Shown here piece by piece: positions 14,201-64,000 of a stretch of DNA of 64,000 nucleotides. Location: contig OZ316895.1 of the NCBI GenBank assembly GCA_973895155.1, positions 23,892,281 to 23,956,280 of the forward strand, given 5' to 3'. Below the pieces are notes generated by a model. It searched no databases. It was not told the DNA's origin and saw nothing but the letters and a program-made list of their open reading frames with translations. The number at the start of each line of letters is the position of its first letter. Positions within the stretch are counted from its first letter, which is position 1. The stretch comes from Marsupella aquatica (lineage: Eukaryota; Plantae; Marchantiophyta). A program made the translations under genes and the position numbers.

Positions 14201-17200
14201 TGTAGCAGGTAAACCATCAGGCGTTGGAGGAGACACACTGGCGATGATGGATCGATTAGAAGTTCTTGGTGAGGCTTTGCTCTTAAATGACGACACATTG
14301 AACCCTTGGAACTACGTTGCGTCCTCGGACCATGTAATTTTGGACCCTAGCCTTCAGGTTATTAAGCCATGAAAAGAAATTACGGTAGCTAAAAAGTTGA
14401 GTTGTTCTCTTAATTTAATCTTTTTAAGAGACCTTGCTATCCAAATATTTAGCTATCTATGATCCTAGTGCACGGCATGAATAGTTTTGATACGGAACAG
14501 TGTTTTAACTCGGGAGTAGATAAAGATCCAACTGGAAGCACAAATGCATTTAATAAGGTTTAGTGCTTTAAATGATCTCTAAAACCGACCTTATGCTTGA
14601 CAGGTCGAATTGATTATGATGAACAGAAGTCTATTTGATAGCGACATTTCGAAATCTATACGAAAAGGGTTGCAGATACAATTTATAATTCTTGCCCTTC
14701 AACGTGTGCCGTTGTTTCTAGAGCTGGACTACGAGCAACTTTCAAACCTTGCAGAACAATTCACAGAATCAACGCATAAGAGAGGTTCCATGTAACATCC
14801 TAGAATCTTTGCCCTCATTGAACATTATTGATCCAAGAACTTCCTACACTAACATAGATCTCTTCCAAGTCATTTTGAATCTAACCTTTTAAGTATGTTG
14901 CCTACAGTTTTTTGATAAGCTAATGATAAACTTGCAGCGGAAGAATCAACCTAAGGTCGTTCATATTAAAACTTTGTGACAGATTAAGTTCATTAATTGG
15001 CATTGAATGAGTCAAGCTAGTGACATGTAGAATGGAGGACTCTGTTTCAACTAACAGATGACGATTCAGATTGAGTGGCCTGTGATACAAACGATAATCC
15101 TTGGATCTGCCGTTGATCTGTGCAGGACAAATAATTGTGGGAATTGGTGATGCTTCTGCCTCCGATGCACGTTTATATGTCGTCCTCAAAGGCACTTTAG
15201 TAGTACAGAACTTCGTGACCAGTCCTGAAGTGATGCAAAATGATGCGAATCAGGTGACTAACAGTCCGGTGATTAATAGTTGGGGTAGTAGACTGGGCTC
15301 TTTGTTGAGGAGCCCGTCTGGAAACCACACAATTCCACCTCCTCTGACCCCATTGAAGAGCCCATCTGGAGTAAACACAATTCCACCTCCTCCAACCTCG
15401 TTGAAGAGCCCATCTGGAGTAAACACAATTCCACCTCCTCCTACCTCGTTGAAGAGCTCACAAGGAGGAAATACAATTCCACCTCCTCTGACGAGTGGCT
15501 CGAAATCTTCTCCCACAAGTTCCGGAACTTCCAGCACAAGCCTCTGCAGCCCGAGTACTAGCTCAGGTCCCCTGAAAGTGTCCCAACTTGAAATTAACAA
15601 TTCGGCAAGGGATCCTACGAGTCGCTCCCCTTCGCTCACTTCTGGGTAGGTGGAATTGTCTCTTTGAAGGAAACCATGCACTTAAGGCGCACCTGTTACA
15701 TGTACGCTACTGTAAACCATTATCAGAGAAAGCTAAGGATGCTCTTCATTCTCAAGAAAGTGTTCATGAAAAGAACGTACCAATTAAGAATTGTTCGCAG
15801 GCAAAATATGTCTTCATGAGTAGCTCTCACTGAAAAACATTTCAAACAAAATGTTTTTTGGAATGAAATACTTCATAACTCAGGTGTCTTCTTCCTGCCT
15901 GATATATTGCTGTGAGAATCGTAATGATTCATTACTACTAATCCCACGTCCTATATCTGTCGAAAGCTTTATAATCAGGTGTTGGTGTTTCTGTGAGATC
16001 CAGTCAAAGCTGGACTATTACAACTTATTCGGTCTTTGGAGAGGAGTGTTTACAAGACGACAGATCCTCAAGCCCAGCATGCCAGTCTACCACTGTGCTT
16101 GACAGTGCAGCGATTTGTTTATCTGTGTCACTGTCAGAGATGGCCTGTGTGCTTGGACCTATACAAGAGTTTCTTGCACGAGTTGCAAATCTCAACGTTC
16201 TTAGGTGCAATTCTCTCCTTTCTCTTCACATACATGCACCAACGGCAAGCTAGTGATCTGATTACACATCTGTCAATTAAACTAATTATTAAAATGAGGC
16301 TCTCAAGTAATGTTGAAAAACTATCACAGGAAAACTTATTACAGGCTCGAAAAAACCCTTGAGCTGTTATATCCGGTAGATGATATACCCGGAAATGAGG
16401 ATTTCGCCATCATTTTCTCGACTCAGGGATTTGTAAAGCTCATTGTATGCACACTCATAGTACCAGTTCCTAAATAAAACAGAGCACCCCATTGCTGAAA
16501 AGACCCAACTTGTCGTCACGTGAGAAATATGACAATGACAATTCTTTGGCCAGAAAGGTTCCATGCTTGGAGTATCTTACAAGCCCAGAGTTGGATATGA
16601 TGTCGCGGTCAATGGGTCTTCGGAAGGTGAAGCCCGGCGAGGTGATCTATCGCCTTGGAGATCCAGGTGACCGACTATATGTCGTCCACAAGGGGACAGT
16701 GGTGGAATCCACGAACTCAGCCAAAGATGGCAAAGTGGAAGAGCAAATCCTAGTATCCGGATCCTTCTTTGGAGAATGTGCTCTTCTTAAAGCAGAGCCA
16801 AGATGGCAGACAATAATTGGTGGCAACGCTAGTTCCCCATCAGGTTAGCATAATGTAGTATATATATCACTTGTGTAGCCATTTTGTGAAACCTCTAGAG
16901 AGCCTCACCATGTAACCGACATATAGACTGGGCTGCAGCTTAATGAATTCTGTTTCAAACTGTCACTCAATCGATTAGTCTAATTTATCTGAGGTAGATA
17001 GTTCCAGATATTCCAGCCTGTATTACTAAAAAGGTTTGGAGTTCTACACTTATATATAATAGTTGTCTTTCGAATTTACTTCCAATTGTTTCAATTGGTA
17101 CATTTGCTGTACTCAAGTCCGGACTCGTATCACCACACTGCTAATGATTTGTCCACCGGGTAAGATGCAGCCAGAATAGAACTGTACTATTTGGATCGAG

Positions 17201-23255: not shown

Positions 23256-25452
<2,197 letters not shown>

Positions 25453-27102
25453 CGTTTTCTCCCTTGGAAGTCAACTGGCTTGGATCTGGACCTGGACAGA
25501 TATATAAGTCTGTTTTTCTAGAGTGATGAACGGACAGTTTTTCGAACACTCAACATCATTCAACGAGCTCGATGTTGAACGGAATTGGAGCAGCTCTCGC
25601 AGCCCTGAAAGGTAACCTCCAGCAAACTCCCAGCACAGATCGAGCGAGTCTGTCTAGCTATATTAGCTAAAACCATACTTCTGTACGTTTCCGTCCTACC
25701 AGATGAACTTTAGCACTTCAGAGTAGGTTCGTTACAGTCGCAGACTTTGCTGACCGAACTGGAGGCTAGGGAGAGATATCGTTGTCCACTTGAAACTGTC
25801 AGTGAATGTGCGCATCCGAGAACTCAGGACCTGGCTTCAACACGATGTCAGCTAGGGATCGCTGTCCGCCTGAAGCACGTACTTTACACTCAATCAATCA
25901 CACGAACGATCGGACAATTAAATTCAATCAGTCACTTCTAGAACGAATGCTGATTCACCAAGCTACCAGACGAGCTTCTTCCCCAGCTTCTTCTCTGAAC
26001 GACTGAACGTATCCGGCCCTAGAGTCCCATGCCATGATTAGCGAAAGATTGATGATCAACAAGAACTACATATATCGAAATGGATTCTCCAGTTGTCAAA
26101 ACCAGCTGGCTGCCTGCCTGAAGTTGGATGGCGGCTCGAATGTCGAAGTACTGATCGAAATCTAGCTGGCTGGATTGCTGGCTGGCTGCTTGGCCGGGGG
26201 CGTCAGCAAAACTTTCTACTGACTCGAACGATCTCAGCTGGGGAAGGGGGAATTTGACTTCAACGTGTTCGATTGATTGTTAATGAATATCAGAGCGACA
26301 TACACGGCAAAGGATTAAGAGGTGGCAAGATGTCAAGGTGTCAAGAGGAGCAAGAATCATGCTCGTGCATCAAGTTGGAAAGGGGAGGCTCTGGTTGACA
26401 TTATCGATTCAAACAGCGTGCGAGCGTTCCCACGAAGGCTGCTAGCGAAGTCATTAGTATGAGTAGTAACCCAGTTGCTGAGTTGCACCACATCAATAGA
26501 AAATAGTTCTATATTGTGGCGTTTGCATGGCGTGTGGGAAATAGACAGACTCCGGAAAGAATGTCCAGCCAGCTGCAGCTACAGGAGTAATTAAGTTGAT
26601 TGCTTGAACCTACTCCTTTGAGCTAGCTCGGGGAGGGTCTGGTTCAGATTGGTCACACCCGTCAACCACTCTACGCCAGTGGGTCTGGCTGCCACCAGGC
26701 GAACCTTCTTTCAAGGTCAGCCCCCCGTCTCCATAGTCAGTGCAGCAGACAGCGTCTCCGATCCCAAGCTAGCCAAGTGATAGGCAAGCAAGCAAAGCCA
26801 ATGCCAGCTGATCGAGCTCGCCATGGGAAGGACCTGACGATTGCTTATAGGACGTTTGTCACTCGTTTATTGTCGAAATCAGTATTTGGGTGCTTTAGAT
26901 GTCATTCTTTTAATTAAATAGACCAACAAAAACAAAACATAAGAGAAGAGAAGAGACCAATTATAAGGGACTCCGTGACCTCCTATGTTCTTTACTCTGG
27001 AGCTTTACCAAGCTTTGCATTCTTCTCAAGTACATTATGATAACTTGTCCCCGCCGTCGTGTGCTTGGGCGGGTTCATTTTAAGCTCCAATGCCACACCA
27101 TA

Positions 27103-27509
27103 TCTTACTAATAAATCGCAAACTGCAACCTATTTTTCACAAGCTAGGGTCTAGAGTGAAGCCTCTAGACCGGAACTCTATGGTCATCATGTGCATGAGA
27201 AAAACTTATGATATGATTATTATGTATGTACATGCCAATTTTATGTGATAATTTTTAAATATTAATTTACATTCAAAAAATATAGATAGTATGGCCCCAT
27301 CACAACATATGTGCATAGAACATGGATGTGCATACAAAAAGCCTGATGTGCACATCAAGGAGAATGATATATTATATATGACTATTAAAATGATGGGTTT
27401 TTTTATCATTTCATTAATCTTCAAAGAATATGAATAAAAAACATATTTTGATAATTCTTTTATTGTTCTCTCCGCTATTCATGTTCAAAGAACGGGTAGT
27501 CGGGGCTAG
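27103..27509 (+). mobile_element. Non-autonomous Helitron (~0.4 kb)
   Basis: 5' a|TCTTACTAATAAA and 3' gttc-aaa-gaac hairpin then gggtagtcggggCTAG|t. Inserted at A|T with no TSD. Closely similar inverted copy at 50111-50514. Confidence 0.85.
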
Positions 27510-27936
27510 TTCGCCAAATTCTGTTTTCCCCCGCGCCACCATTTTTGACTTCTGAATTTATCCGTTCGTGTCCGCAATTGTCTTAGTGGTTGCAATGCCG
27601 CCAACCACGGTCCCTACAGCCACATCAGTTAGGGTGTTAGCTTTCACTGCTCCTTTGTAGTAGGGTGTTAGCTTGTTAGCTTTTACTGCTCCTTTGTAGG
27701 TTACTTTTTGTCTTTGTTACTTCTTTGGCTTTTGGTTAGGCCCCCTTGGCTTGTTTTTCTTGGGGCCCTCTCCCCTCTTTTATTCAATCCCTTTCATTGG
27801 GATCATGTCTCCCATTTGGCATTTTTTGCCCTTGGGCACTGTGATCATTATAGCAATAGCAAACCTAGCTAGGAGGAAGCCCACTGGCTGCTCTTACCCC
27901 CAAAAGCACCAAAAGCATGGTCAAAAGCAAGGTCAA

Positions 27937-43923: not shown

Positions 43924-46900
43924 ATGACGGAACCCAAGAATACAGGAGAGAGCGAACAAGGGGCTTCACCAGTGGGTCGTGTTTATCGGCGTCACTCAGC
44001 AGGAGGTTCAGACGAGCTTAAATTACAACGAACTAGGAGCTCTAGGAGAAGTTCATTATCACAAGGCCTGAGAGAAGGTGGCCACATAGTAGCGTCAGCT
44101 GTTGGCGGGGCTGTTGGGGCTGTTGGAGCCTTCTTCAAAGATAGTAGGTGAGTTCATGTATAAATTTTCTGTACTATACGCCCCTTGGACATTCGTGATG
44201 TTTGTCCACTTTTCAATACCTGAATGTGCTGCAAATGAGAAACATTTGTTTTTCTTAAATTCACTAGTTCATTGAAAAATCTAGAACCAACTTGTTCATA
44301 CTGGGAGAGAGGACGATGGAAGGAGGGATTTCCCTCGTTCCTGCAGTTTTGCTAATACCAAGGAATCATTATGTATCGTAAAAGGATGATGAGACAAAAA
44401 ATCGGTCAGGATTTACCATGTTTCTCGAGAATCGAGCATTGGCAACTATGTAGGACGAAGAACTTGCGCTGATGCCTAAGCCACAGGCAGTGCGCTAGTT
44501 AGTATAAACCAATGAGCAACAATTAACAAGAGCATGCACATCGGTGTTTGATAGGGGTGAACTGCTTGACCCTGAGGATGATCCTGAGTTTGTCCGAACC
44601 CAGCCAACATGGGAAGATGATCTGAACAAATACCTGCCTGAAAGTCAATCTTATACGCAGCCATGGAATGCAAATCCATCATCAGCCGTTGGTCCATCAA
44701 CATCCAGACAGCCTGTTGCTTCCGGATTCGAGAATGTCGCCTCCACCTCAGCAAAACCTCCAATGATCCCCTCTCAAGGAACAGGCAATGCGGTATTGAA
44801 CTTGCTGTTAGGAGTCAGTTCCAAACAGCCACAAAGCCTAGCAGCATATCGATGGCACAAAGCATATCAATTCGTCAAAAGGCAAAATGTACGCATGCCC
44901 TTCTCCTATGATCTATATGCAACACAATTTCTGCATTAAAAAGTGAGAAGAACCTTTCTCTTTTAAAGCACTACTTCTACTAGTCACACAATCTCTTCTT
45001 GAAGCAAGCCGTTCATAATAGTATAAACAAAACATTCCTTTTGTTAAAGAGACAGAGTTCGTGAGTTTAGCATGTTGGAATTGGTTGCAGGCGATGAGAA
45101 GGAAAGCCATGAGCAGTCCACTAGGTACTGGAGCAAAATTAGATGGGCTTGCTTTTGGAATGATCCCCACGGATGATGAAAACAGACAAAGCCTATTTAA
45201 GTTTTGGTACCAATCGTATCCACCAGCAATATACTAAGCCTTCATATACTCCTTTGTGGACACGAATACTTTTGACTAAAGGAGTTTCTTCCCATCGATT
45301 AATGAACTGTGTGCTTGACAAATACATAGTCAATCAGTCCGAGAAGTTATAGATTGCTATGTATTTCTCAAGCATGTTAATTAAGTTTGGTATCAGTGTT
45401 TCAACAAACAGAGGGCTTTTCCTTAAACCTGCGAAACATGTAATTGGTGTATTGAGTGTATATCTCCTTATTAGGAATTCCTGTTTTTCCAGAACTTTAC
45501 TTGTTGACTTCAGCAATTTATGTGCTTCAAGAATCTTTCTTAACATTATATCAGGAATGCGGAGTATTGGCTGGCTTGTCTTATTGCAGGTCATATTCTT
45601 GTACTTATTTTGAAAGCAGAACACAAGTTTGTCACACCATACATACCCCCCAAGAAAGGTCTTAATGGTGCCGACATTGCTCTCACTACATTCTATACGT
45701 AGGGCCCTCAACACCTTCCGAGTTGAATTTCTTTTCTTTGTATGTTTTGACTCAGTGCCCCTTCTGCATGGACTTCCATTTTTAAGTTCTGACAGAACAA
45801 AATCAAACCCAAGGAGAAAAATGGAAGGAATGACGAAATTTAGCATCAGTACTTAGGAACAGAAATCACCGCCTAGCAAAATTAATGAATTTCCTTGTCT
45901 ATCTCACCACATATGTCCACACTCGGTAGCTTGCTTGAGTTGAGGGGTCATTATACGTACTGTATTCTTCGTCTGGCATGTTCATCTTGCCTGAGATTGG
46001 ATAACAACTTGGATACTACTTCCATATCCTCTCCTAAGTCACGTCTCGTTTTCAGAAAGTCAGAGGTTCTCCCCTTTGGCAAGTGCACCAACCTTCTGCC
46101 TGCGGGCGGAAATAAAATAATGTCGCAGAAAAGTCCTATTGACCTCATTTTATTAAGAACCAGGCAAGTTAATGGATGATAATGACTGTTCATCTTGATT
46201 TTATTGCAGATTGGAAATCGTAAGCCGAATCTTTTGCTTGGGATTTTGGCACGAAGGTCCCCACACATATCTGCGTAATCCCTACAACAAGCTAGATCTC
46301 GTCATTGTTGTTGATTCATGGTGAGATTTGTATGCAGCATGTAGCTAAATTTCTATGCATTATGGCAAACTATTATTCGATCTAGGTCATATTCTAAGTG
46401 TTTCAAATCTGAATAATGTCTCCTCTGTTCTGTGGAGAAGTTTTCGAGACTCATAAAATGGACAAACCGGTCCTGATGTATGCGAACTGCAGGGTTCATA
46501 TTGCACGAACGTGTATTCTAGGGAAAGATGCATTTTGCCGTATCGCTATACTTCGAATATTTCGAATATTGCTGTCTATGAGGCACTTCTCTTTCATCGG
46601 GAATGTTCTAGTATGATTCATTTTTCACTTCGCTCCAATTCAAAGTCTTTTCTTTCTCATGTATCAATCGTGCATATTCCTTACAGCTTTTTAGCACCTA
46701 GCCAGGAGCTTGTTGGAATAGCCCACATGCTTGTAAAGAGGCTGAGGAATTTATTATGTCACTGTTTTTGTTTGTCCTTTCTGTTATGACAAGCTCACCC
46801 AAGAAATAGGAGAGAGGAAGTTCTTGTATGTCCGGAAGCATTCATGTTTTCAAAGCAATGAATTCTACTCGAAACAGCAACTGTCTTAGTTTCTGGTCCA

Positions 46901-49900
46901 CATTCTGTATTGTTGTGTATCGTTGCATATAACTTCTTTGCTGATATTTTCCAAGTGTTCTGGGAATCTTGCAGGCTATCATGGACTCCATAGCCAAAAG
47001 TGCCTGGCAATTGAGGACAATATTTGTATTTACCATTATGATAATGTCCTTTTATTCCTTGATGGGTGTGGTCTACTTAGGTGGAGCCCTGCAAAATAGG
47101 TATAGTCTCATAGCATGCATTCATCGTTTGCACTCTTACTTGTACAGCCAAATCTAATGTCCTGCCTACAAATGAGCAAGTTTAACGTATTCTTGCAAGC
47201 ATAATGCATGAAATGAAAAGTCAAAACTAGACTGAAAAATCAGAATCGAGCTTTGATGTGTTTTGTTCATGGCATTGTCGGACGTTGCGTAAACCTAATT
47301 CCTTACCTACATGGAGACGAGAATGTGTCTGCCAGAATAGCACAACTACACCTCAAGAGTGATTCTTTAGAGAGTCTGAGTTGTATTCAGCACAATCTTT
47401 GATCTTGTCAAGGTTTTAACACGGTCAATTACCTGTACAAACTTATTATTGAAACCCTTGCTAAGATGGCATCAACTTACTATCCTGTCAGGTGCATACG
47501 GACCACAGATAATCTTACTTCCTATCCCGAAAGGAATTGCATAGTAAACTTGAATAATCCTTACGGATATTTATGTCCGGATGAACTTGACCAATACTGC
47601 CAGGTAACTTCTACTCAAAGTGATTGAATGTTCTTTGGTGGATGGCTGCAGTTTTCAGTGACCAATTTCTACAGGTTACACATAGATTAAAAATTCAATC
47701 TATGAGCTATCGAGATACAAGATTAGATTGCAATTTATGAAAGAGAGTGGGCACTTAAGTAAGGACAAGTAATATGCTTTAGCCGCGGCTTTATCGACGT
47801 GGTTAAAGGAAGATGTGCTTGAGACTCATACGTTCTTCCATGACGAATTAATTGTTTCCTGTTCATTTAATTCTGTGGATCTACTCCTTGTTTTTCTAAA
47901 CAAGGAACAATTGATTTGTCATGGAAGAATCTAATTCGTTCGATTTACTCCAGCCTGCATATTCTTCTCAAAAAGAAGCAGTGTGATTTGTAGTTGTGTG
48001 CTCTTGCACAGAGGTCACTGAAACCTTTTCATGAAATAGTAACTTGATATGACTCTGAAAATTTTGTGCAGCCTTATATAAATCCTAATTGGGGAATCAG
48101 CAGCTTCGACAACTATGCATCAGGGATGCTAGTACTTTTTCAGGTTAAAATATATTATGTGCATGATACCTCTCGCTATAAAATGAACATTGTGTGTCGC
48201 TCTTTGTACAGACACGTAGTGAGTATAGTAAATGGTGGGTGAATGTAAGATTCCCTATAGAGAGCCTTTGCAGCTGCATTTCTCCGGATGCTTGCAAATT
48301 CCTCAAGAGCAAGTTTCATCACAGAATCAAGATTTGAGGGTTTGCAATTGTTAAAAAATGCAAATGGTAACCTCCTTCCAGCTAAGGTGGCTTCCATCAA
48401 GTGTTGTCGGCACTCACCCTTCTGAAAAACTGACCTGGCTAGTATGGCCATGGCTGTGACCATAAGAACTGGCTACCTGACAGGCTATCAACAACATGAT
48501 CGTTAAGGCTAAGTTGTATTGGTTTATATTTTTGTTTTAGTGGACACAATGCTGTAGAAGCAAACAGTTTTATGCTTAGCAACTCCTTAGGTACATGCAA
48601 GTAAGTGAAACAATTGATTTCACGACAAGCCGGCTTGCGAAAAATTTTGATGAGTTTAATTCATTATTTTGCTTTTGCTTTCTTCCAGATGATGACTTTT
48701 GAAGGATGGTCACTTCAAATGTATAACATGGATGATACGAATGGGTATACAGGTGTGAAATGTCTTTCAAATGTGTACCTACTCTCTTTCAAACATTTGT
48801 AAGCATCAAATTCAAGAACAGATCGAAAGAAGCTATTAGTAAGATATGCTACAGTACATCAGAACAAAATGTAAACTCTCAACGAGTAGCTCTCGAAAAT
48901 TTTGGTAAGAAAACATTCTTGAGGAGATGAGTAATGATCTCCTGTGCGCACCAAAGAGAAGAGAACAGGACGAATTACAGGAAGCCATATATTGGAGGAC
49001 TACAATCATGCTATGTACAGGAAAGATAGACTCTGAGCTTGGAAACCTGTCTTACAGCCTGTGTACATGTCTGGTTTACTAGTCTTGGACCGCACTGCAT
49101 TGGAGTCAAGCTGTGGGTGTGATACAACAATATTTTCAATGGCAAAATTTCTCCCAATTCCACCTCACTAAAAAGTCTGTCAGGTTTGGCAAAACTTTGC
49201 CAGGCTTATTGTCTTCAATTCGCCAGATTCTCACCTTGCCACAGACCCCATTTGTCAGAATCCGACCGTCATCCTTAAATCTGGGGAAATCTAGCGGTCA
49301 GCAATCCATTGAGGGGAATTAGATGAGGTACATAGTGAATACTCTCCTTTGTACAAAGTGACATTCGCCACCTTGGCAAAAAAGAAAAATGTTGAAGACT
49401 ACCCTGGTGTGGTACAGAGTGAACTCTTAGCTTCCTTCATGGGGCATGATTCTGGTTCTATTGTCTTTTACTGGCCTTGTCTTGGAGTAGAGTCCACTTG
49501 TCATGCGAGGTAAAAAAATTGACATAGGAAAGGCATTTTAGTGAAAGGATAAGGTGGACGGGAATTAAGAAAACAAGAACAGCGGAAGTGTAAAGAATCC
49601 AAATAACTATGAGGAAAGTGCGGTTCTGTTCCCCCTTTTTCCAACAACTAAAAGCTATGACATATCAGTGCTCCATAGAGCTCTCTCCATGTGTATGCAA
49701 TTATTGCTAAAATCCTAACAGCTATCAAATGTATCTAATCAGCTAAAGTCCACTCAACATGATAGAATTGGAAAGAGATCAAGAGTAATGTTAAAAATTC
49801 ATGGTTCTCTTTATGTTTTGAAAGAAATGTGAAAATCATGATTGACAGCCCATCTACATTTTGAACTGATCGCATTACACAAGCTGTACGTTTTGGATTA

Positions 49901-52900
49901 ATTTGGTTGTATGAAAATCTTAGTAATTTCTTTCCATTGGTGGTTTTTGCAGATGCATTCTATATGATCTTCTTGGTTATCGGGAGCTATTTTATAGTTA
50001 ATGTGTACATTGCAGCCATAAGTAGTATATTTCTAAGGGTGAGGCATGAGCATCAGGTACATGACATACACTGATTCTGAAACCTAGGCAGTCCTTGTTC
50101 TTTAAGATTACTAGCCCCGATTACCCGTTCTTTGAACGTGAATAGTAGAGAGGACAATAAAGAATTATCAAAATATATGTTCAATTCATATTCTTTGAAG
50201 ATTAATGAAATGATAAAAAAAACCATCATTTTAATAGTCATATATAATATATTATTCTCCTTGATGTGCACAGGCTTTTTGTATGCACATCCATGTTCAA
50301 TGCACATATGTTATGGTGGGGCCATACTACCTATATTTTTTTAATGTAAATATTTAAAAATTATCAACATGTATATACATCATAGTCATGTCATAAGTTT
50401 TTCCCATGTATATGATGACCATGCACATGATGACCAGAGAGTTACGGTCTAGAGGCTTCACTCTAGACCCTAGCTTGTGAAAAGTAGGCTGAAGTTTGCG
50501 CTTTATTAGTAAGATGAATATATACATAGAATCAAGAATTTAAGTTTCCAAACAGGGAAAATAGAAAATCAATTAACCTTGTCTGGTCATGATAATTGTA
50601 CAAGAAGATAACTTTCACATATTTTGAACAATAATATTTAAAGACTTAAACTGATAGACTTCTTGATAAATGTAATTGTTTACTTGTTTCTTGCAATTTT
50701 CATTTCTTAAATTTTGAAAAACATAGACGTCCTCTCATTATAATTGAACTGCATAGTGAAAGCAAAGACAGTCACTAAAAATACCAGAATTTGCCTTAAA
50801 AACAACAAAAACTAGCTGTGAATGGGGTATTGATATTCTTACATCCACCAAGTTGTCTAAAAAGTGAGTTGTTGTGCTATCTTTAAGGATTGTCATATAT
50901 TGTCATGCAGGCTCTACTCAAGAAACACCGGCGAGATAAAGAATTCACTTTTGCAGCTGCAATTGAAATGGCCAACTTATTAAGGGATGTCATTGTTAAC
51001 GATGACAAAACTGTCAAACTCACATGGAGGCAAAGGTTGAGTGTTAATACCTCCATAGGCATAGAAAAATTAACGGCGACCGTCTCTCGACAGGGTACGA
51101 GACTACAAAGGACATTTACAAGGGCAGTAGATTGGAATGATCCAAACTCCTACTTGAAAAGATTAAGTACCTTTGGTGCGACTAGCCATGACACTGTAGA
51201 GTTGGAGGAGGTTGCACAACCACCTGGGTCAAGATCATTTGGACGTTCTCTATCTCGTAACCTCTCTATTGGTGGACAGCATGTTGCTCGATTGAGTCGT
51301 TCTCTCTCTCGCAATATTTCCCTGGGCATGATTTTTGCTGCCAAAACTACGTCTCAAAAGTGTTATCTTATTGTGCAAAGTAAACTCTTCATGTATGCTG
51401 TTCTACTTATGATTAGTCTCAATATGGCGGGTCTCTGCACCTTTCGGGCAAGTATATCTCACATACATAAAGTAAGACTTGGTATCCTTGCCTATGAAAG
51501 TTTGAATTACAATTTAACAGTGGTAAGGAATCAAAATATCAGAAAACCTATATGTCTGAGAAACTTATATGAACCTTGTAGATTACTACCTAGATTGAAT
51601 AAACCATACGCCTCCTAATAAATTGGAAACTAAGGGACAAAGAAAATGAATCAAAGCTCAGTCTAGTTGGTATGTGGTTGCTCCTGTGATTAGTGAGTAT
51701 TTTTTTTCTAAATGAACAGTAGTGCATTGTGAGCTCTACTATAAATTATGAGATAATGCGCTGTTTGAATTTGCATTCTTTTTAGCTGTATTCCTATGGA
51801 CGATGAAGCTAGAGATAGATTTAAAATGGACAATTTAAACATAAAAAGATCCTAGCAATGCAACTATATTTCTGCTGATTTTAAACTGTTCAATTACTAA
51901 TGAATATTTAGTTTTTCTCATCTGATTAAATTGAACAATAAATAGGCAGCTGAAGACTAGCTATTTGTTGATACTCCTTAATTTCTATGCATATTGTCTT
52001 TGTTCAAAGCTGTTGTGTTGGAGTATTATACTGAATTTAGACTGAAGGTACATTAATCAAAACAAATGCTCCTCACTAACAAACATTGTAAACGTGCTCC
52101 CATTTTGCAAAGCAACTGTCTTTCAAGTGGCACATACATTGAGCACTTAGCCCAATCGGATTTGGTGTGAGTGTGGAGTGTAGAGCTGGGTTGCAAGAGA
52201 TTGGACATCTGATTTTGGGCCAATGATGCAGAGAAAGATTCCTTTGTTGCCAGCTGAAAAGTAGCAATTAGTTCAGTCACAGAATTACAGGGTAACCATC
52301 TGAGTGGGGCCTAGAGGTCAGCTTAGTTTGCCAGGGATGACTAGTGTCCTGCAAGTCTTCAAGTTCAATCCCATCAGACAGTTTGGCTACGTACAGAGTC
52401 TGTTCTTGCATGCAATATGAGGTCTATACCACCCCACTTTGGGTGGGTCAAATGTGTTATGTGCCATTTCCCTTATGGTAGTTGTAGAATTAAGCTATAC
52501 CAAAGAAACTATAAACCAGGGGTTTCCCTGCCTGCAAAAGCTAGTTGGGCAGCTCGCTCAATGAAAGGGTGTTTCAAGCTCAAAGGCAATTTCCCTTTCA
52601 GTTAAACTAAGTGTTTTGGGCTCAAATGCGGTCTCCTTTTGAGAAAGGGTATGTTTGGCAGCAAGCATTCATTGTTAGTGACTTACTGGGGTGATCCACT
52701 ACTTTCCTCACTTTGGTATCTACCTCATTGACTCCGGTTGATTTGAGTCTTCTGAGGGGGGGTTTGTTGACTCTGTGGGGTTCTGTAGGCTTTGCCCATC
52801 CCCCCTTCCCCCAGATTTATTTTGCTGGCCCATGGCTCTATGTCTGGGTTTCAGGTGCCAAAAATGAATGTAAAATGTTGACCGTTGGGAAGCCAAATAG

Positions 52901-55900
52901 TTACAAACAATTGAGACAAGTAACCTATCAAGACAATAGCCAGAAAGTGTTATCTAGTTTGTTTCACTTGCCTTTGTCTCGATCTTTTATGTTAGTATAT
53001 TAGAAAACTTAGAGTAAGTAGATCAGTACCCCTACTTTTCATATAGTTATTGGACATAATAGAGATGAGTACAAAAATTGTTTGTGTGAGCTGTGGGGAA
53101 AGTGGCAGATTGTGCATGGAATGGGCGCACAGTGACACCTTTAGGTTGATATCATGGTCAGAAAAAAATGTCACCATTATTCAATGTCCAAGGAGGCTTC
53201 TTGCTAATATGACATTGATAAACAGACAATGAGAAAGAAAGACAAGGGATCTAGCATATATGATAGTGTCTAGATGTATGTATGTTATTTTATTCCTAAA
53301 CCAAAAAACAATTGAAGCAAATACTGAATGAGAACACATTATAATTTCCATGACAAACCTTGACAAAATATTAGAGATATTGGAGATTGGCATGTTGATT
53401 ATATTTTCAGGCGAGATGGCCTTGCGATTCATGGCTGCAGGTTCACTTGCAGGCTTTGTTGATGAAAGTACGTATGTGAGAAAATTTCCTTGATGACAAG
53501 AAAAGTGTTTGCAGTATTGTTGTGGTTGTGTTTTTAGACAAAGTTATCTAGATGAAAAAAATATATTGGGGTTCACTTAACTTCTAGAAATAGGTCACTT
53601 GCATATAACACTCTCTTAGGTAACCCAATCATGCAGATCTTTTAAAAACATCTAGAGTAATACTGACCAAATAATTACTAGAGACCAAAAAAGTGAATAC
53701 AATCAATAATAAGTTATTGATTTTAAAAACCAGGCAAGAAAACATTTTTGAATGTAAACCTGAGCCACCAAGTTGAAGCTTTGATCAGTTGGGTCACAAA
53801 CCTTTGTGAGAAAAAACGGAAGTGCCCATACTATATCCCCCCCAACCGTGTATTATTTAAAGAACTCAAGGAGAACTAGTTTATTTACCAGGGGAGGGAC
53901 AAGAATCCCATCCAGAATAAGGAAAATCTGTCCGCATGTGATCATGAGAAAATGAAACTGCACGGTGCACCACAATGCTATTTCTATGTAAAGTACAATG
54001 TCTGACTTAAATAAATCCCCAAATTGGTGTCATATGAAGTTTTTCCTATCTAGAAATTTATACATGATATTCTACATTTGTGTGTTATGGTTGTTAATCC
54101 CATTGTTAATTCAGTCTGTGCATTGTGTTTATAGGGATGAATATTGTTGATACTGTTGTTATAGTTATCTCCTTTGGTGCCACTGGTTTTGGACCCAGCA
54201 AAAATTATCCAAATATAACTCCAATTCGAATGTTGCGTTGGTTTTATAAGAAGAACAGCCACAATGAAGACCAAGGGGAAGACATATCCATATCGGTATG
54301 CACTGAACTCCGTTTGTCCCATATGTTCTATTTCCAAACAACATAATTGCGCAATTGAAGTAAAAATGCACAAGATTCATGGGTGATTTTTTTAACCAAA
54401 AACTATCTTTGCATAAAGTCTCCAAAATGACAATATGTAGAAGTAGATGGAAGCTTTAGTCCATTGTCAGTGCATGATACTAAAGAGATGTTTATGGAGA
54501 AAAAGTGACTAGCTAGGATCTAGATCCATAATCTGCAGGACACATGTCTCACTCATTAGTGGGGGCATCATTCATTTAATAATGTCAATGGTGCATAAAA
54601 ATAAGACCATTGATACGAGGTGTCACTCGTTGAAATATAGTATGTATTCAAAGACAGAACAATAGTGATCTCGACCATTTTCTACTCTCCATCAATTTGA
54701 ATTAACAACCTTCCAAATGGATTATAATAATGGAGGATTATGCTGCCTACAGTCCAACCATTTCACTCTAATCCATGGTTTAACTATTTTTAGATATATT
54801 TGAGCTACCCAGAGGAAGACTGAAGTACTCATTATTTAGTTAGCTGTAAGTTACCAAGGTGATTTGCATGTGAACATCTTGTTAGACACTACAGTAGCTA
54901 GAATGGCTGTCATAAACAAAGAAAGAGAACAATTTCCTCAAGCCAGGCTACAAAGACAAATGTCACACCTCTATAACTATCACATAAGTGCAAATGAATA
55001 AAGACAATAGTCTCTATAATTGTGTTGTACTGTATGTTTAAAGAGAAAAACGAAATGATAAATACTTAATTAAATCAGCAAGCCAACTTAAACAACTAAT
55101 CTGACTTGCTATCAAAATAGCATTGATGTTCATTTTGTTTGATGTAGGTGGCAATCATACGAAGTTTTGGATCGTTGGCAAGCGTGTTTTTTTTCTTCAC
55201 ACTGGTCATTCTTGTATATTCCATAGTTGGCATGGAACTATGGGGCGGCCAATTCAGCAAATTTGATGATGGCTATCCACGTGCCAACCATGATACTATT
55301 TTCCAAGCTATGCTATTATGGTTTTCAGTGACCACAGCTGAAAGTTGGCCTAATCATATGTGGAACACAATGCGTCCTGGGATGCCATACCAGTTACACT
55401 TCCTAAATTGTCTTCAACTCTTGTGGACCAAGTCTCAGTGGATTCTTCACATAATTTTATGGACTTTAGCATCTGACATAATGTTGGTGTCAATAGTGTT
55501 GTTTCACTTTAAGATGGATATGGTGACCCCAATTGTGACCTTTCTTTAATCATGTTGCACCTCTCATGAATGGCATATATTGCAGTAAATAACTCAAAAA
55601 ATGCATGATGGTTATTGAGGGACAATTGTGTCCATATTATAAGACAAGAGTGCAGGTTGCAAGCATTAATTAGCAGTGACATGGATCATATGATGTGGCA
55701 GGTGGATGGGACCTATCATGTTTATTAGTTACTATATGACATCTACAATAGTTATTCTGAACCTCATCATGGCTGTGATTTTGGAGCAAACTGAGCTGAC
55801 TGACAACCAAAAAAAGTACATACAAAAGGTTTGATACCTCAGAGACAAGAATTATGGACAAAGATAAATTAATATATTTTGTTAAAGTTTGGTGTAACCT

Positions 55901-58900
55901 TTAGACTGGAGATGTCTTTAGTTATGCATCCATCAATTAAACACAGTTTAAATTCACCATACTTAGCATGACCTACTCTGAGTGCGGCCTCATTCCATCA
56001 TTTTGAAAAATTAACATGTTGTAGTGAATGGCTGGCTTCGTTTTGTGATTAAAAATTGCATTGTTCTCAATCTACCAGGATGCCTTGTGTTGTTGGAATA
56101 TGAATCCTAGCTAGGGAAAGAACTTTTGTTATTATTGGCCATATGTTCAATTTTGTAGCATTGTTCAATTTCTTCTGATTGTAATGCATTGTTGTGATCT
56201 GTCTGGGGATGCTAGAGGGATCATATAAAGTGGTTACAATCCAGGCATAGTCATCATGTTTCTACAACAAGGGGTTCAGATTGGCTTCTCGACGCTGTGC
56301 ATGGTGCTCACAAAGGATATAAGGGGGTGAAGAAGAGAATGAGTACCATAAAAGTCTCAAGAATGTCACTTTTCCCAGTGTTTCAGCCAGAAACTGGATA
56401 TGTAAGGATGATCCCTGCTTCACAAGGTGGACCTCCCACTAGTGAGGGTCTTCTTCCCATAACCAACTCTCAAACACCATTAGGAGCAATACCCGAGGCA
56501 AAGCCCCCTACCAGAAGGTATTCTTTTGGATCCCCAACAGCTACTATACCAGGGGCAGTGGCAGACCCCCCAAGCGAGGATAGAACAAAAGCAAGGATTT
56601 TTCGAAGAAGCAGCTTGAGTGCTTTAACTAGTATGGGTTTAATGTCTCCAGGTAGTTCTCATTCACCAATGCATCGAAGACCTAGCCATGATGCTGACAA
56701 GGTGGTTCTAAGAAGTGGTTTTGGCAAAATAAAGCCTGTAGTTGAAGGTGAAAACAGAACTGCATTGCAAACAGCGCTCTTACATGTTGTGGAAGAACAG
56801 AAAGAACTTTCCAAAATAGTGGACCAACAGAAAAGTGAATATGCCCAAGAACTTGCTGCTGTGATAACTCCAGTGCCTGGCGTACCAATTGATCCAAAAT
56901 TGGCAACCCCTAAACTTGGGAAAATGCCATCTAGGAAAGAAAAGGAGACACGTATCTCATTTTCACTGTCTGACTATGAAGCAATTAAACCAATGGGTGA
57001 GAAGAAGGTTCCATGGTGGTTGTCCGAACCCTCTCTCTTTATCTTCAAACCTGATAATAGGTTCCGGATATTTTGCAACAAAGTAGCTGAGAATTCCTAT
57101 TATCTTTATTGGCAATATATACTTATTTGGTTGAGTTTGCTTATTGTTGTGGAGCAAACTGAATTAGGATTTTACGAACTTTGGACAAGTCGGCCACAAA
57201 TTTTGAATAACCTTGACTATGCGCTTTGTGGTGTAAGTTTTCCTTTTTCATTCTCCTTCAAACTGGGTTTCACTCAATTTTCTTTGGGCATCAGTAGGGT
57301 CTTATTCATTCAAAAGTTGATGATGTCTTAGTGATAGTTTAATTCAATGCACTCATCTGTTTAAGAAATTGCTAGATACTTCACCTTGTTTGCTTAAGTC
57401 CGTAGTCAAGTGTTTTACAGATGTAACAATTCATGTGCCTGAAAATGTAAACATCATTGTCAGTTTTTTATGGACCTCAACTCAGCCATAGATCGATGTT
57501 TGTAAGCTGGGTTTGAGGCAGGCTTTGCAGTTACATAATGAAAATAGCATGAGACCATAGGACATGCAACATTTGAAGTTGTTGTGTTTTGAATGGTTAA
57601 ATTTTAACCTTGGGAGCTATGGATATACTGTAGTCTATGTTACTAAGAGACAGGACTGGTGACCCTATCACACATTCATGTGACCTTTTCAAGGATATTG
57701 AAAGAATCCCTATTGATGAAATATGTTGCTGTTTGCACTGCATAATTAAGTCTCTCCAAAACTTCATTGCCTAGATCTTTTGAATTATCAATGAATGCTT
57801 GCTCAAGACCAATAATATCACTTCAAGATTCATATGCAAATAGAACTCATGTCTTAAGTTTAACATTTGAAACTTTCAGTTCCACTTAACTAGCTCAATA
57901 TTTATTTATGAATGAGCTATTTATTTATGTTTCTTGTTATTTTTACTGATCACCTATGTTAGAATGTAATCTTAGAAACGTACTTTTATTGGTGCACAGT
58001 ATTTAGAGTAGTAATATTTATATATATACAAAACTCAACTCAGCTATCACTCAAAAATAATTCCTTCCTTGATAAGAATTATTCACAAATAGGAGAGGTA
58101 CTTAGACTGAGGAGAACTTGTTCATGACTCATAAAGTTATTATTATGGAAGCTAAGTGTTTACATTGTACACATACATTCTGTGAAATTGGGTGTGAAGG
58201 AAAGGAGGGATAAATGAATATTTATGTTATTGCCTGTGCTAGTCTTTACCTTTAATTTAAACTCTGGGATTATCTAAAGAGGAATTAGTAACTTGATTTC
58301 TTGCCCTGGGAATAATGAAGCTTTGATTATAAAACAATGTTCAATACAATTTCTTCCCCAGATGACACAACTTGGCTTGAGCAACACTGAACCAGAGCCA
58401 TGTTCTAAATCCCCAAACAGGTCTTAGCAAGCTTGAACCAAGAGCTTTCTCTTGTTTATTTGTTTGTATCCTATATTGCAGTTTTGCACATTATGAATTT
58501 CTTGATTAAGAGGTCTCTTAACTCATTTGTGCAATTATTGTTGGTTGCAGGCATTTTCCCTAGACTTCTTAATAAAAATTGTTGCTTACGGTTTTCTCTT
58601 TGCACCAGAGGCTTATTTGGGTGATCCATTCAATCTTATAGACCTCTTTTGCCTTATTGTACATCTTTGTAGAGTGCAAACCATAGTAGCGGGACCCTGG
58701 TTCAATATGTTCTTGCTATTATCAATGACACGCCCTGCAAGATTTGTTGTTCGGGCACCTGGTTTGAGGACTTTAACAGTATCAATTTTCCGCACAATGC
58801 CAGCAATCGGCCAGATGCTTGTCTTCACTATTGTTATCTATGCTATCTTTGCTGTTATTGGAATACAGTTGTATGCAAACCGTTTCAGGTATTGCACTGA

Positions 58901-59550
58901 TAGCTCGGTGACAGGTCATTTTGATTGTGTGGGCTACTTCTATAATAATGTCGGGATAATTGCCCCAAGGACATGGAGAAACCCTCCTTTTCATTTTGAC
59001 AATTTTGGTGAAGCAATGTTGTCTTTGTTTGTTCTATCTACATTTGACAACTGGCTCGATCTATTTGCATACACTTCTATGGACATAGCTCATCAGCATG
59101 AATTACAGCCAACGCGAAATGGTAGCCCTGAAAATATCATTTACTTTGTGAGCTTTGTTTGTGTGGGAGGCTTCTTCATTTTACGCATGTTTATTGGTAT
59201 CTTTATAGACCAGTTTGGTATTATCTCGGGATCTAAGTTGCTCACAGAGAGGCAAAAGCTATGGCGAGATACAAACCGTATTGTACAATCTATGAGACCA
59301 ATTCGTCTTCCAAATCAACCCACGGGAATCATCCGAGGATTTTGCTATAGACTGGTTCACTCTAGGAGGTTTGAGCTACTTGTCATATTTGTGGTTCTTG
59401 TCAACTATGGTTACATAGCTTATCAACACTATGGCAGTGAAAGTATACTAGTACATTTTAAGCACGTTATGGACTTCCAGAATGTTGAGACTATGTTTGT
59501 TAGCCTGTACTTGGCGGAAGCCCTTGTCAAGTTTCTAGGTACTGAGGTGC

Positions 59551-59627
<77 letters not shown>

Positions 59628-62600
59628 TGAGGGAAACATAATCTTTTGCCATGTACCATGAATCATCACATTCTAGAACTCAAACCTGTTATTTTATCTG
59701 AGATATACTATCTTTCCACGGAAACAAGCGGTAATTACTAAGCTGACACTACACCATATATTAATAATATGCCACAATATGCACGAGTTGACACCCAGGC
59801 CAGATGTACAGGTATCATACTGACCGCTTTGAACCACAGAGCCCCTGTCAATGGCAAGGAACCTCTGTCACTCCTGTTGACTTCAACAACTCCCACCCTC
59901 CTCCATGAATACAGTCATCCATGTCAAGCCTGGCCTTAGTATGTTCCCTTAAACCACAACTGCCCTTCAAAAGCTACGGGTTACCCGTAGTTACCATTAA
60001 AAGTAAAATTTTCCTGCAATTGTGGAGCAAACTGGCATGCTAGAGGAGAAAAGTGATTAAAATGTGGAAAAGGAGGAGATCTTGGACACTTCCACTTATA
60101 TAGGGGAAGTTGTGGTTTAAGCAAACTAAGGTACATTGGGCTATACAGCCATTTGACCAAACTAAGCATACTGAAGGGCACATAGTCCTTACTAAGCTGC
60201 AGAGTTTGCTAAGATACAACAGTGAGACCATGGGTGACTACTGTAGACTATATATGCTACTGGTGGGGAAATAGGAAATTTTCCCAACTAAGTTTCAGTG
60301 TCAAATTAGTAATTTCCATGGTTCCCATGCATGGCAATTCAGGAAGTCTCAGTTAAGTTGCAACAAGAAGCTGTTGGAACCAGTTTCAAAGTTTTGGTTT
60401 TGCTTTGAAAGACAATTCTTCATATAAAGAGTGCAAGGTTTTGAGGTTTTATTATGGAATTCTAGCAGCCCGAATTCTAGAAGACTGTTTTAATTTCAAG
60501 TAAGAGGTCATAAATGGATGAATCAATTGCAATATGTCTGTTTACAACTCTTATAGAGAGTGTGATGAAACCATGAGTCATTGTTTGCACATGACTATCT
60601 TATCAATACTGAGGTGTCAAACTTTTACTTAGCTGTTTTAGATCAAACAAAAGCTTTGGGGTACTGACTCAAGTAAATGTCTAATCAAGCTTGTGTTCAA
60701 ATCTTTGTTTGTAGTTTAATGATTGGTGGCACCAAAAATGGAACTTGGCAGAATTTGTTATGGTCATCGTATCTGCATCATGTATATATCCTGAATTTGA
60801 TTTGAATCAATATAGGACAGATGTTGGTGCATTCTTCTACATATTAAGAATATTTCGGGTTATCCGGTATATCCCACAGCTTAGCAGTATGGTCTCGACA
60901 GTGCTTATAAGTTTGCCAAATATGGTGGACATTGTGTGTTTGATGGGGATTGTATTGTTCCTTTTTGCTGGAATTGGAAACAGCTTATTTCCAACTCTCA
61001 AGAATGGGACATGCTATGGGGGTAATCTGAGCTTTGCTAGGTTCACAACAAGCTTTGTGCTGCTTTTTCAGGTAAATCTGATACTCACTATAGAACTTTT
61101 CAAACTTAAGCAATTGCCTTCTCACCCATTTCAAATCACGAAAAGCTTTTTTGTGCTAGCTAGTCATAGAAATTGCAGTTTTGCTTCCTAAAAGTGGATG
61201 TCATTGGAACTTTTCCAACTAAGTAGCAGCTTTTCCTCCTTATGAATAAGAAAAGAGTCATTGGATCAGTTAGGAGGTCATCTGTTAGGATTGAGGAAGG
61301 CTGAATGGAAGCTGGCCACAAATAATTACAAACTGTAATTGACAAATTCTAAGACATCATGATTTGCATGCAAGAGATCCGCTAGTACCAATAATATTGC
61401 ATTCATGAAACAATATACAATATATTACGAGTTCATGTATGATTGTAAATTCGACTTTTGAGGCATTGGTATGGCGCCCCGGTATGGCGCCCCGGTATGG
61501 CGCATGAACATTATTCCAGCTTCATTGGCCTAATTTATTTGAATGCGTCTTGAATGTTATTTTGGGCAGGTAACAACCTTGGACAACTGGTCATGTCTTC
61601 TACCAGACATGACTGTGCAACAACCAAGCTGCACTTATGGTAAAAGTAAATACTCGTCAGACTGTGGACTTCCATCAGGAGGCATAGTGTACCTAGTTGT
61701 GCTCGTTTGTGTGACCAGTCACATATTTGCGAACCTTTTTGTCGCTCAAATTATTGATAGTATCACCTTTGGATTGCTGGAGGAGAATGCTATGCTGACA
61801 CCTGCTCATTTATATGCATACCAAAACCTATGGGCTCAAAAAGATTTTGATTACTTGTAAGTCATGACACATACATTGATCTAACAAGGATAAAATTGTC
61901 TTTGAAAGTGGCTATTTTGTTTTTTTGCCAAAACTGAGTCCAAAACCATTTTGTAAAAACATTTGTATTTTTGACATTGCGCCTATGTGCAGTGAAGAAA
62001 GGTTTGAAAGCTCACATTTATTATGAATTTATCCAAAGTGTTCATAGTGCCATGTCCTAAGATGTAGAAAGTCACAAGTTTTTCATCACAATCCTCAGTT
62101 GCCACAATGTCTATTATCGGTTAAAGTTGTGCATCAAGACATATACCCCCCCTCTTGTAGATCTCCCTTGCACCCGGTGCATGGGGAAGGCATACTATTA
62201 AGGGGGGAGGTAGAGGGGTACATATGAAAAGTGGGGAGTAGGTACGGGGAGAGGTGGAGTACGAATTACATACACAAAAAGATGGGAGTATGTACAGGGA
62301 GAGGGAGTACATAGGGGCTTAAACCGCCACTGGCCACATAGAAGCTAGGAGTGTCCAAAACTTCCTCCAGTTCCCATATTTCACTCACTTCTCTCCTCTC
62401 CATGGCATTGTGCTCCACAATTCCAGGAAAAAGTTGCTTAATTGGTGAAACCTGGTGGATCCAGGTTCTGTCATGGCTAGTGGCAATTTAAGAACCATGT
62501 GGGTCATCAGTAGGGCTTGCAGAGAGACAATCTAGCTAGGCCATTGATTTGGAGAAAACTATGGTGGCCTTGAAAAACTATGGTGGTATTCTGATATATT

Positions 62601-64000
62601 AAAATTAAGACAAAGCAGTAGTTTTGAATAAAGATTATTGGCAAGGTAGATGCCTCAGTCGATTAAAAAGACAAAAGTAGTGGAACCTTCTCAAATCTCT
62701 TAGAAACCTGAAATGCAATCATTTTTCATGTCCCAACTCTGCCCTGATTTGGGTGTTGTCTTATTTTAAGGGCCTTACTTATTTTGAGGATCCCCCTAAT
62801 TTGGTGGGGTTCCAGCAATGAATAAATAAAAAATAAGGAACCTCACTGAATCTTAGTTTTACATGTGCACTTTGTACAAGAGTGTAGTCTCTAAATGAAA
62901 GTACTTTCTTGATTCCAAAGCTAAAAAGAGTACCAAGTTATAATGAATATAGTAGTGAAACTCTTTATGCACATGTTTCATTGCTTCTTGCAGGGCCACA
63001 GGCTACATTGGACACCACAAGCTGAGGGAATTTGTGAACAGGCTTGGTCCACCTTTGGGACGACGTCTCACATTCCAAGACAAGTGGTAAGTAGTATTTG
63101 ACTTTAAAGTCGTAAGTAATTATTTAGTTCATATTTGGTTGAATATATTATGCATTATTTTGTTATCATGAACTCTATCCACTTTATGGAGTTTGAGTGC
63201 ATTTTAAGTATAAGCACACAATACGAAGCATTGCTGATTCTGGGGAGCAATTTAATTACAAACTACAGTAAACAAACAAGGTAACTTTCCAACAACAAAA
63301 AAACCAAAAGATATCATTTCTCATTCAGTGCACACATCATAGCTTCCTTAAGCTTTTGATTGTTCATTAATATATTGTGAATCAAATGCAACAGGTTTAC
63401 TCGGATAGAATATGAAGCTCTCAACTTTCGGAGTTCAAGAGGAATTCCTTTCCGATCATTGCTTGAAACGTTGGTTTTGTACAAAATTGGGCCAAAGGTG
63501 TGTTTGAAAAGTTCAACAACAAATAGCATACATAGGACTTTAGAATACCTATTTAAATAACAAAAATTTAGCTAAATTTCACTAACTGTTATTTTTTCAT
63601 TGTCATTATGCCCAGGTTAAGTCTTCAAAAGATTAATTAAGTTCTTTTTGTTGGAGAATAATCAAAACAATGTTTTTATCCTATCTCAGATCTCATCTTA
63701 GGCTCGGGGGTTTCACTTCCACAAGCATGGCACATCATGTGCAATGAAAGATATGGTCATTTTATTGGTTCTAAGGAATACTTAGGAAGTTTATGGGAAG
63801 AACATTATGGTCTTTTTAATCAACATTTGAAATATTCCAAAAACATTCTAACTTTATAGGGGAACTTAAATAGTAATGTTTTCTTACATTTTAGGGGGTT
63901 GAGGCCTAAAAACGTCACAGCTGATGGGGAGGCCTCCATACAGTGAGACCCTGGCCCCAAGATCTTAGGCTCTCTTGCCTTGGTGGTCTATAGGATCTTG
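43924..64000 (+). CDS. Four-domain (4x6TM) voltage-gated-type Ca2+/cation channel alpha subunit, EEDD filter, NALCN/Cch1-like; 3' end outside window
   Basis: 22 predicted exons: 43924-44147, 44555-44888, 45091-45215, 45555-45698, 46210-46320, 46493-46610, 46975-47099, 47492-47603, 48072-48143, 48689-48752, 49953-50056, 50911-51481, 53375-53467, 54135-54295, 55148-55392, 55702-55828, 56216-57232, 58551-59546, 60715-61071, 61570-61856, 62994-63086, 63395-63497. Together 1861 codons, phases consistent, no stop. Four pore loops: FDNYASGMLVLFQMMTFEGW, HDTIFQAMLLWFSVTTAESW, FDNFGEAMLSLFVLSTFDNW and FARFTTSFVLLFQVTTLDNW. S2-S3 motifs YLRNPYNKLD and YLGDPFNLID. S6 motifs ILNLIMAVILE and FANLFVAQIID. 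EF-hand-like C-tail ATGYIGHHKLREFVNRLGPPLG. Confidence 0.95.
50111..50514 (-). mobile_element. Non-autonomous Helitron (~0.4 kb) in a channel intron
   Basis: Minus strand reads a|TCTTACTAATAAA ... cgttc-aaa-gaacg hairpin ... ggtaatcggggCTAG|t. Same family as 27103-27509. Confidence 0.85.
59553..59624. repeat. (TC)n microsatellite just after a channel splice donor
   Basis: Perfect TC run of ~70 nt starting 6 nt after the exon end at 59546. Confidence 0.95.
61468..61503. repeat. 13-bp tandem repeat (ggtatggcgcccc) x ~2.8
   Basis: Seen directly in a channel intron. Confidence 0.85.

Follow-up and report, generated by a model that had tools for sequence, protein, structure and literature searches.

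The window analysed here is a stretch of 64,000 nucleotides from contig OZ316895.1 of the liverwort Marsupella aquatica, and it carries a gene for a four-domain cation channel of the superfamily that includes the animal Cav and Nav channels. Using land-plant homologues as guides, we modelled the gene as 22 coding exons on the plus strand, running from an ATG at 43924 to 63497:

43924-44147, 44555-44888, 45091-45215, 45555-45698, 46210-46320, 46493-46610, 46975-47099, 47492-47603 (+): channel exons 1-8, homology model
48072-48143, 48689-48752, 49953-50056, 50911-51481, 53375-53467, 54135-54295, 55148-55392, 55702-55828 (+): channel exons 9-16, homology model
56216-57232, 58551-59546, 60715-61071, 61570-61856, 62994-63086, 63395-63497 (+): channel exons 17-22, homology model

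The exon junctions were derived from homology, not from RNA. The joined exons form a phase-consistent frame of 5,583 nucleotides, or 1,861 codons, with no stop at all against about 114 expected at the stop frequency of the introns, and the introns are bounded by GT-AG in 21 of 21 cases. The predicted protein aligns with the full-length Marchantia protein Mp2g23520 at 44.5% identity over 1,755 columns and with the Diphasiastrum orthologue P0004 at 40% identity over 1,844 columns. A preliminary description of the window had claimed a stop-free channel gene of 22 phase-consistent exons with four six-transmembrane (6TM) repeats and four pore loops, and the model bears this out. Its term "intact" holds for the core of 24 transmembrane segments and the proximal C-terminus only, and does not extend to the 3′ end. 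Specifically, the frame of exon 22 exits at a splice donor without a terminal stop inside the window, four full-length land-plant or algal orthologues have a further tail of 57-160 residues that contains an IQ-like motif, and an orthologue-like IQ tail was not found in the last 500 bases of the window. The gene thus runs off the window, and one or more terminal exons with the IQ motif and the stop would lie beyond position 64000. The IQ domain (PF00612) scores above the cut-off in the Selaginella orthologue and just below it in that of Diphasiastrum.

The four repeats were recovered in the protein with a one-repeat hidden Markov model (HMM) built from nine non-plant channels. Single exons also match PF00520 in each repeat, with E-values of 0.0012 in repeat I (D1), 2.5e-13 in repeat II (D2), 2.1e-42 in repeat III (D3), and 4.4e-15 and 0.0049 in repeat IV (D4). 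The repeats and the II-III linker are placed as follows:

45556..50038 (+): repeat I, residues 229-505, exons 4-11; filter Glu460 at 48701-48703; S4 at 46533-46589; four Cys in the L5 turret
51379..55789 (+): repeat II, residues 668-897, exons 12-16; filter Glu851 at 55340-55342, with Ser and not Asp at +1; S4 at 54206-54250
55790..57097 (+): II-III linker, residues 898-1204, rich in Ser, Pro and Arg, mostly in exon 17
57098..59219 (+): repeat III, residues 1205-1472; filter Asp1415 at 59046-59048
59364..61767 (+): repeat IV, residues 1521-1766; filter Asp1705 at 61582-61584

The II-III linker has no Pfam match, and the III-IV linker that follows repeat III is short, with 48 residues. The four pore loops read TFEGW, TAESW, TFDNW and TLDNW, in which E460, E851, D1415 and D1705 align with the filter residues of animal channels and the +1 sites are G/S/N/N. 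Among the land-plant rows with four aligned loops, the E/E/D/D filter is found in seven, the exception being Ceratopteris with E/D/D/D, while the +1 residues are G/S/N/N in all eight; Ser at +1 of repeat II is common to the window gene and most land-plant rows. Both named fern orthologues, P0007 (Ceratopteris) and P0009 (Adiantum), have Asp in place of Glu at the repeat II filter, and the Ceratopteris ring represents a step towards an all-Asp ring.

The voltage sensors are reduced. Of the S4-region columns in which 6 or more of the 8 reference channels carry a charge, the window gene retains 2/5 in repeat II, 4/7 in repeat III and 3/6 in repeat IV, and other land plants retain 2-3, 4-6 and 3-5, respectively, so S4 charge loss is common to land plants. 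The S4 of repeat I keeps four basic residues, those of repeats III and IV are missing their outer arginines, and repeats II, III and IV do not have the Arg/Lys-rich S4 segments found in all four repeats of Cav and Nav channels. Turret cysteines number 4 in L5-I, 0 in L5-II, 2 in L5-III, 3 in L6-IV and 1 in L5-IV. A 4-0-2-2 turret pattern with a short III-IV linker is described as a signature of four-domain channels (PMC6259924), and the window gene shows it with two extra Cys in repeat IV. An AID (beta-subunit binding) motif was not found in the I-II linker by a pattern search. Folding of exon 18 with a 61-row alignment gave a mean predicted local distance difference test score (pLDDT) of 92.1 and a model closest to human Cav1.2 (E 2.4e-15, template modelling score 0.67), whereas its single-sequence fold was uninformative (pLDDT 40).

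The relatives of the channel were identified with exon 18 as the query. The best 16 of 308 matches all carry the names of land plants with flagellated sperm (Marchantia, Riccia, Sphagnum, Ceratodon, Selaginella, Diphasiastrum, Ceratopteris, Adiantum and Ginkgo), at 40-58% identity and 284-396 bits, and no score from row 18 onwards exceeds 232 bits. No angiosperm or conifer name appears among the best 120 of 308 or the best 120 of 231 matches, in searches that were word-seeded and length-limited, such that absence is weak evidence. The Ginkgo match, P0016, was assigned to its species by its "Gb_" identifier (Gb_09885); Ginkgo is a seed plant with swimming sperm. Marchantia, which the preliminary description had named among bryophytes with noted candidates, indeed has two orthologues, Mp2g23520 and Mp6g11570, each 44.5% identical to the window gene; Diphasiastrum also has two, and Selaginella at least four distinct proteins. 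Further orthologues include Selaginella XP_024521493, Diphasiastrum O6H91_02G023500, Ceratopteris KP509_11G019800, Ceratodon KC19_4G185300 and the Ginkgo entry.

The main phylogeny was built from repeats III-IV (553 columns, LG+G4) with 26 rows chosen by hand from 64. Wider trees of 220 rows (5 of 224 left out) and 64 rows (1 of 65 left out) show the same branching pattern; the trees contain one Cav3-like row, no named NALCN, Cch1 or Chlamydomonas CAV2, and no hornworts, the Chlamydomonas search having returned two unnamed long proteins. The window gene groups with the Marchantia genes (support 100/99), then with the mosses in the setaphytes (98/95), then with the other land plants (100/100), and the land-plant clade is sister to a prasinophyte clade of Bathycoccus and Pseudoscourfieldia/Pycnococcus (100/100). 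Ginkgo, represented by a fragment, falls beside the lycophytes with weak support (93/73). Topology tests (p-AU) rejected a grouping of the window gene with algae (6e-35) or with mosses (0.0025). Since the gene sits among liverworts and the land plants are sister to the prasinophytes, the channel is vertically inherited from a green algal ancestor and is not an algal contaminant, as the preliminary description had held in calling it an ancestral channel and contamination unlikely.

The same result bears on whether the locus could be a contaminant, a misassembly or a decaying pseudogene. The terminal exon outside the window, a gene model known from DNA alone and the fragmentary state of several orthologue database models would fit such an origin, but it is very improbable given the stop-free frame, the nesting among liverworts and the sequencing data. 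Contigs of four sequencing runs from two studies span the channel region and continue through its introns, with flat depth outside repeats. The best run, possibly the window's own source, gave three contigs over 44001-49214, 50462-59543 and 60099-64000 with zero differing letters. A second organism differs from the window by 85 indels and 520 substitutions; 0 of 12 listed indels are exonic, and 7 exonic substitutions among 40 listed (of 520) create no stop, of which 3 are silent and 4 letters alter 3 residues, too few for a ratio of nonsynonymous to synonymous change. Additionally, a repeat in intron 11 recurs near a peroxidase gene elsewhere in the window.

Comparison with known channels places the gene more precisely. 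All land-plant orthologues form one clade with about 35-45% identity to the window gene across most of the protein in the long models, the E/E/D/D filter with G/S/N/N and charge-poor S4s; several of their database models are fragmentary, and the window gene adds a further liverwort lineage. The prasinophyte channels (Bathycoccus prasinos, Pycnococcus provasolii, Pseudoscourfieldia marina and unnamed marine relatives) share the D1 S1 and D2 S4 motifs and the IQ-like tail but differ in an E/E/D/E filter, in about 30% identity and, for most, in more S4 charges in repeat IV. Animal Cav3 (T-type) channels share the E/E/D/D filter, the absence of a beta-subunit motif and the position of a U12 intron in D1 S1 (PMC6259924), but carry Asp at +1 of repeat II (PMC10120453) where the window gene has Ser, and have more S4 charges. 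A clade of plants with the one Cav3-like sequence was rejected (p-AU 5e-8), and the EEDD filter therefore likely arose twice. With animal Cav1/Cav2 and Nav1 the window gene shares the fold (Cav1.2 closest), turret cysteines, the short III-IV linker and a likely U12-type intron at the same D1 S1 codon, yet identity is about 25%, the filter is neither EEEE nor DEKA and no AID motif is seen. From NALCN/Cch1 it differs by its EEDD filter, a repeat IV without +1 Asp and the presence of that D1 S1 intron, and repeat I of orthologue P0004 matches NALCN with E 0.004 versus 1.6e-31 for Cav2.2. Membership in Cav3, Cav1/2 or Nav is excluded by the filter, the missing D2 +1 Asp and the S4 charge loss. The earlier label "Cav/Nav/NALCN-type" is thus correct at the level of the superfamily but not below it: the channel belongs to a distinct clade of the green lineage in which the voltage sensors are reduced and which is kept in liverworts, mosses, lycophytes, ferns and Ginkgo.

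Two introns of the gene carry signals of the minor (U12-type) class:

45216..45554 (+): intron 3, likely U12-type; donor GTATCCAC, branch TTCTTAAC 11 nt from AG; phase 2 in Ser228, just before D1 S1
51482..53374 (+): intron 12, likely U12-type; donor GTATCCTT, branch-like CCTTGAC about 11 nt from AG; phase 1 in Glu702, in the D2 S1-S2 loop

In intron 3, the donor matches the consensus in 6 of 8 letters and the branch in 7 of 8. A GTATCC donor together with a 7-of-8 branch match 8-21 nt from the acceptor occurs in 2 of the 21 introns, namely 3 and 12, while 0.0013 such introns in 21 would be expected from the gene's own intron sequence, a comparison that is partly circular for intron 12, since the U12 motif had guided the choice of its junction. 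That junction aligns to the orthologues without a gap; a major-class reading, with the donor 9 nt upstream and the acceptor 2 nt downstream, was rejected because it deletes four codons kept by orthologues. By motif, therefore, both introns are likely U12-type. Ser228 aligns with Ser132 of frog Nav1.5, which corresponds to human Ser131, and minor intron 3 of human SCN5A comes directly after c.392, which is base 2 of codon 131 (PMC13602164), so intron 3, a predicted U12-type intron, coincides with the SCN5A U12 intron in both codon and phase. This D1 S1 site is common to animal Nav and Cav1-3 and is not found in NALCN (PMC6259924); minor introns 2 and 13 are reported for rat Cacna1c (PMC8767276), and in PMC2831892 and PMC6865273 the U12 introns of channel genes are treated for animals only. 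Two minor-class introns would make expression of the channel dependent on the minor spliceosome, like that of animal Cav/Nav genes. The shared intron would extend a genomic signature of Cav/Nav genes from animals and choanoflagellates to plants and, if truly shared, would already have been present in the ancestor that plants and animals have in common.

Public gene models P0003, P0014, P0015, P0043 and P0149 break or read into an intron at or beside these two sites, and they include animal SCN5A and Cav2.3, at D1 S1. Two Selaginella database models have a 21-residue insert at the intron 12 site that starts Y-I-L, which would fit read-through of the U12 donor. Mis-annotation at minor introns may have helped to hide the plant channel family.

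Embryophytes were stated in 2018 to lack four-domain channels (PMC5824947, PMC6259924). The family described here contradicts that statement and places the loss in those seed-plant lineages whose sperm do not swim. The orthologues are already public in RefSeq/GenBank, only as "hypothetical" or under automatic best-match names, and the window gene is one more member of this undescribed green-lineage variant. No description of the family or its gene identifiers surfaced in the literature searched, in which subscription journals and meeting abstracts were not covered; voltage-gated channel genes have reportedly been linked to Marchantia sperm behaviour at meetings. New here are the U12-type signals of intron 3 at the SCN5A codon and phase and the U12-like signals of intron 12.

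By analogy with known channels, the protein is likely Ca2+-permeable, modestly selective and weakly voltage-dependent. The acidic E/E/D/D ring would pass Ca2+, the G/S/N/N residues, with no Asp at +1, would make selectivity for Ca2+ over Na+ and K+ looser than in animal Cav channels, and the S4 charge loss in repeats II-IV would flatten voltage dependence. With such flattening, pH, Ca2+/calmodulin or phosphorylation within the long linkers would be required in addition for the channel to open, and calmodulin control would act via the IQ motif seen in orthologues. These features also raise a quite unlikely alternative, a voltage-insensitive, non-selective or Na+-permeable leak that sets the resting potential and resembles NALCN/Cch1 in action, not in descent. 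The sparse charges of the repeat II S4 and the lost outer arginines of repeats III and IV agree with it, given that a channel with at least one charge-poor S4 is described as probably voltage-insensitive (PMC5824947), as does the lack of +1 Asp in any repeat, which is shared with the Na+-permeable cnidarian Cav3b (PMC10120453). Against a leak speak the filter without Lys, the four basic residues of the repeat I S4, and the observation that, outside animals, filter type and acidity at +1 do not go together (PMC5824947). Moreover, this alternative is about how the channel would gate, and it is compatible with a location in sperm as well as in somatic cells.

Because relatives occur in plants with swimming sperm, including Ginkgo, we slightly favour a role in flagellated sperm, where Ca2+ entry would change the beat and steering; the location in sperm is deduced from this distribution alone. 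Animal CatSper, also weakly voltage-dependent, and Chlamydomonas CAV2 would be functional analogues, sharing the proposed task of Ca2+ entry that alters the flagellar waveform. CAV2 differs in its E/E/E/E filter (PMC5824947), and CatSper is assembled from single-repeat subunits (PMC10120453), in contrast to the single four-repeat chain of the window gene. Chemotaxis of land-plant sperm is described as largely unstudied at the molecular level, moss GLR channels excepted (PMC11032487). A fuller reading, which falls a little short of an even chance, is that land plants whose sperm swim, from liverworts up to Ginkgo, kept a four-domain channel as the plant counterpart of CatSper, with pared-down sensors, an independently evolved EEDD filter and a retained SCN5A-site intron, and lost it only with sperm flagella.

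Several points weigh against a sperm role. The names of Physcomitrium, hornworts, cycads and charophytes, all of which have flagellated cells, are absent among the matches listed; the prasinophyte sister clade contains Bathycoccus prasinos, which is non-flagellated; and such a pattern would suit any trait that flowering plants have lost. Under the beacon rule, a filter without +1 Asp may be Na+-permeable or non-selective (PMC10120453). In 15-day vegetative thalli of Marchantia, Mp6g11570 is up in at least four stress conditions and Mp2g23520 in at least three (PMC9946954), so the orthologues are not silent outside sperm. The main text of bioRxiv 2021.07.25.453666 makes no mention of channels, and the Marchantia gene identifiers were not found in the readable supplements of PMC6174852, PMC5784723, PMC9680858, PMC6290024 and PMC9477723.

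The stress responses and the non-flagellated Bathycoccus would suit a Ca2+ channel that sits in the plasma membrane of somatic thallus cells and serves stress signalling or liverwort action potentials with no special role in sperm, and the multiple copies in Selaginella, Marchantia and Diphasiastrum would permit divided roles. We consider this explanation somewhat unlikely, since the "UP" calls give no expression level and the baseline may be near zero, flowering plants retain action potentials with no orthologue among the matches listed, retention in Ginkgo fits sperm better, and the reduced S4s are ill-suited to fast regenerative spikes. The channel is nevertheless a candidate for bryophyte electrical signalling. 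For the favoured role in sperm, Mp2g23520 and Mp6g11570 offer targets in the tractable Marchantia for learning how Ca2+ steers plant sperm, and the E/E/D/D, G/S/N/N filter with reduced S4s offers a naturally occurring case against which selectivity and gating rules derived from animals can be tested. What gives the finding its value is the family, together with the conserved minor intron and these knock-out targets, rather than the window copy by itself.

The remaining features of the window include two genes named in the preliminary description, which Pfam confirmed, and the intron 11 repeat:

3109-5852 (-): fructose-1,6-bisphosphatase with an N-terminal extension (Pfam)
23259-25470 (-): secreted-type haem peroxidase (Pfam)
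50110..50473 (no strand assigned): high-copy non-autonomous repeat in intron 11, about 360 bp, with CTAG ends and a 9-bp hairpin

Additionally, a PKG-like gene lies at about 13300-19800 on the plus strand, 24 kb upstream of the channel, with cyclic-nucleotide-binding domains at 13300-13578 and 16474-16845 and a kinase domain at 18606-19010 whose best PDB match is cGMP-dependent protein kinase 1. Marchantia sperm motility is described as being under the control of cyclic AMP signalling (PMC11032487), and the PKG-like gene may be a second sperm-signalling gene.

The intron 11 element had been described as a Helitron. It is a real element, with 85.6% identity over 424 columns between 50110-50515 and the copy at 27102-27510 and a summed read depth about 200 times that of its flanks, and it appears Helitron-like from its CTAG ends and 9-bp hairpin only, which leave the class unproven. 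Introns 18 and 20 hold inverted repeat copies (60001-60122 and 62317-62439, 77%), another high-copy repeat occupies 63700-63950, 3′ of exon 22, and a long CT microsatellite extends over 59550-59625, just past the exon 18 donor.

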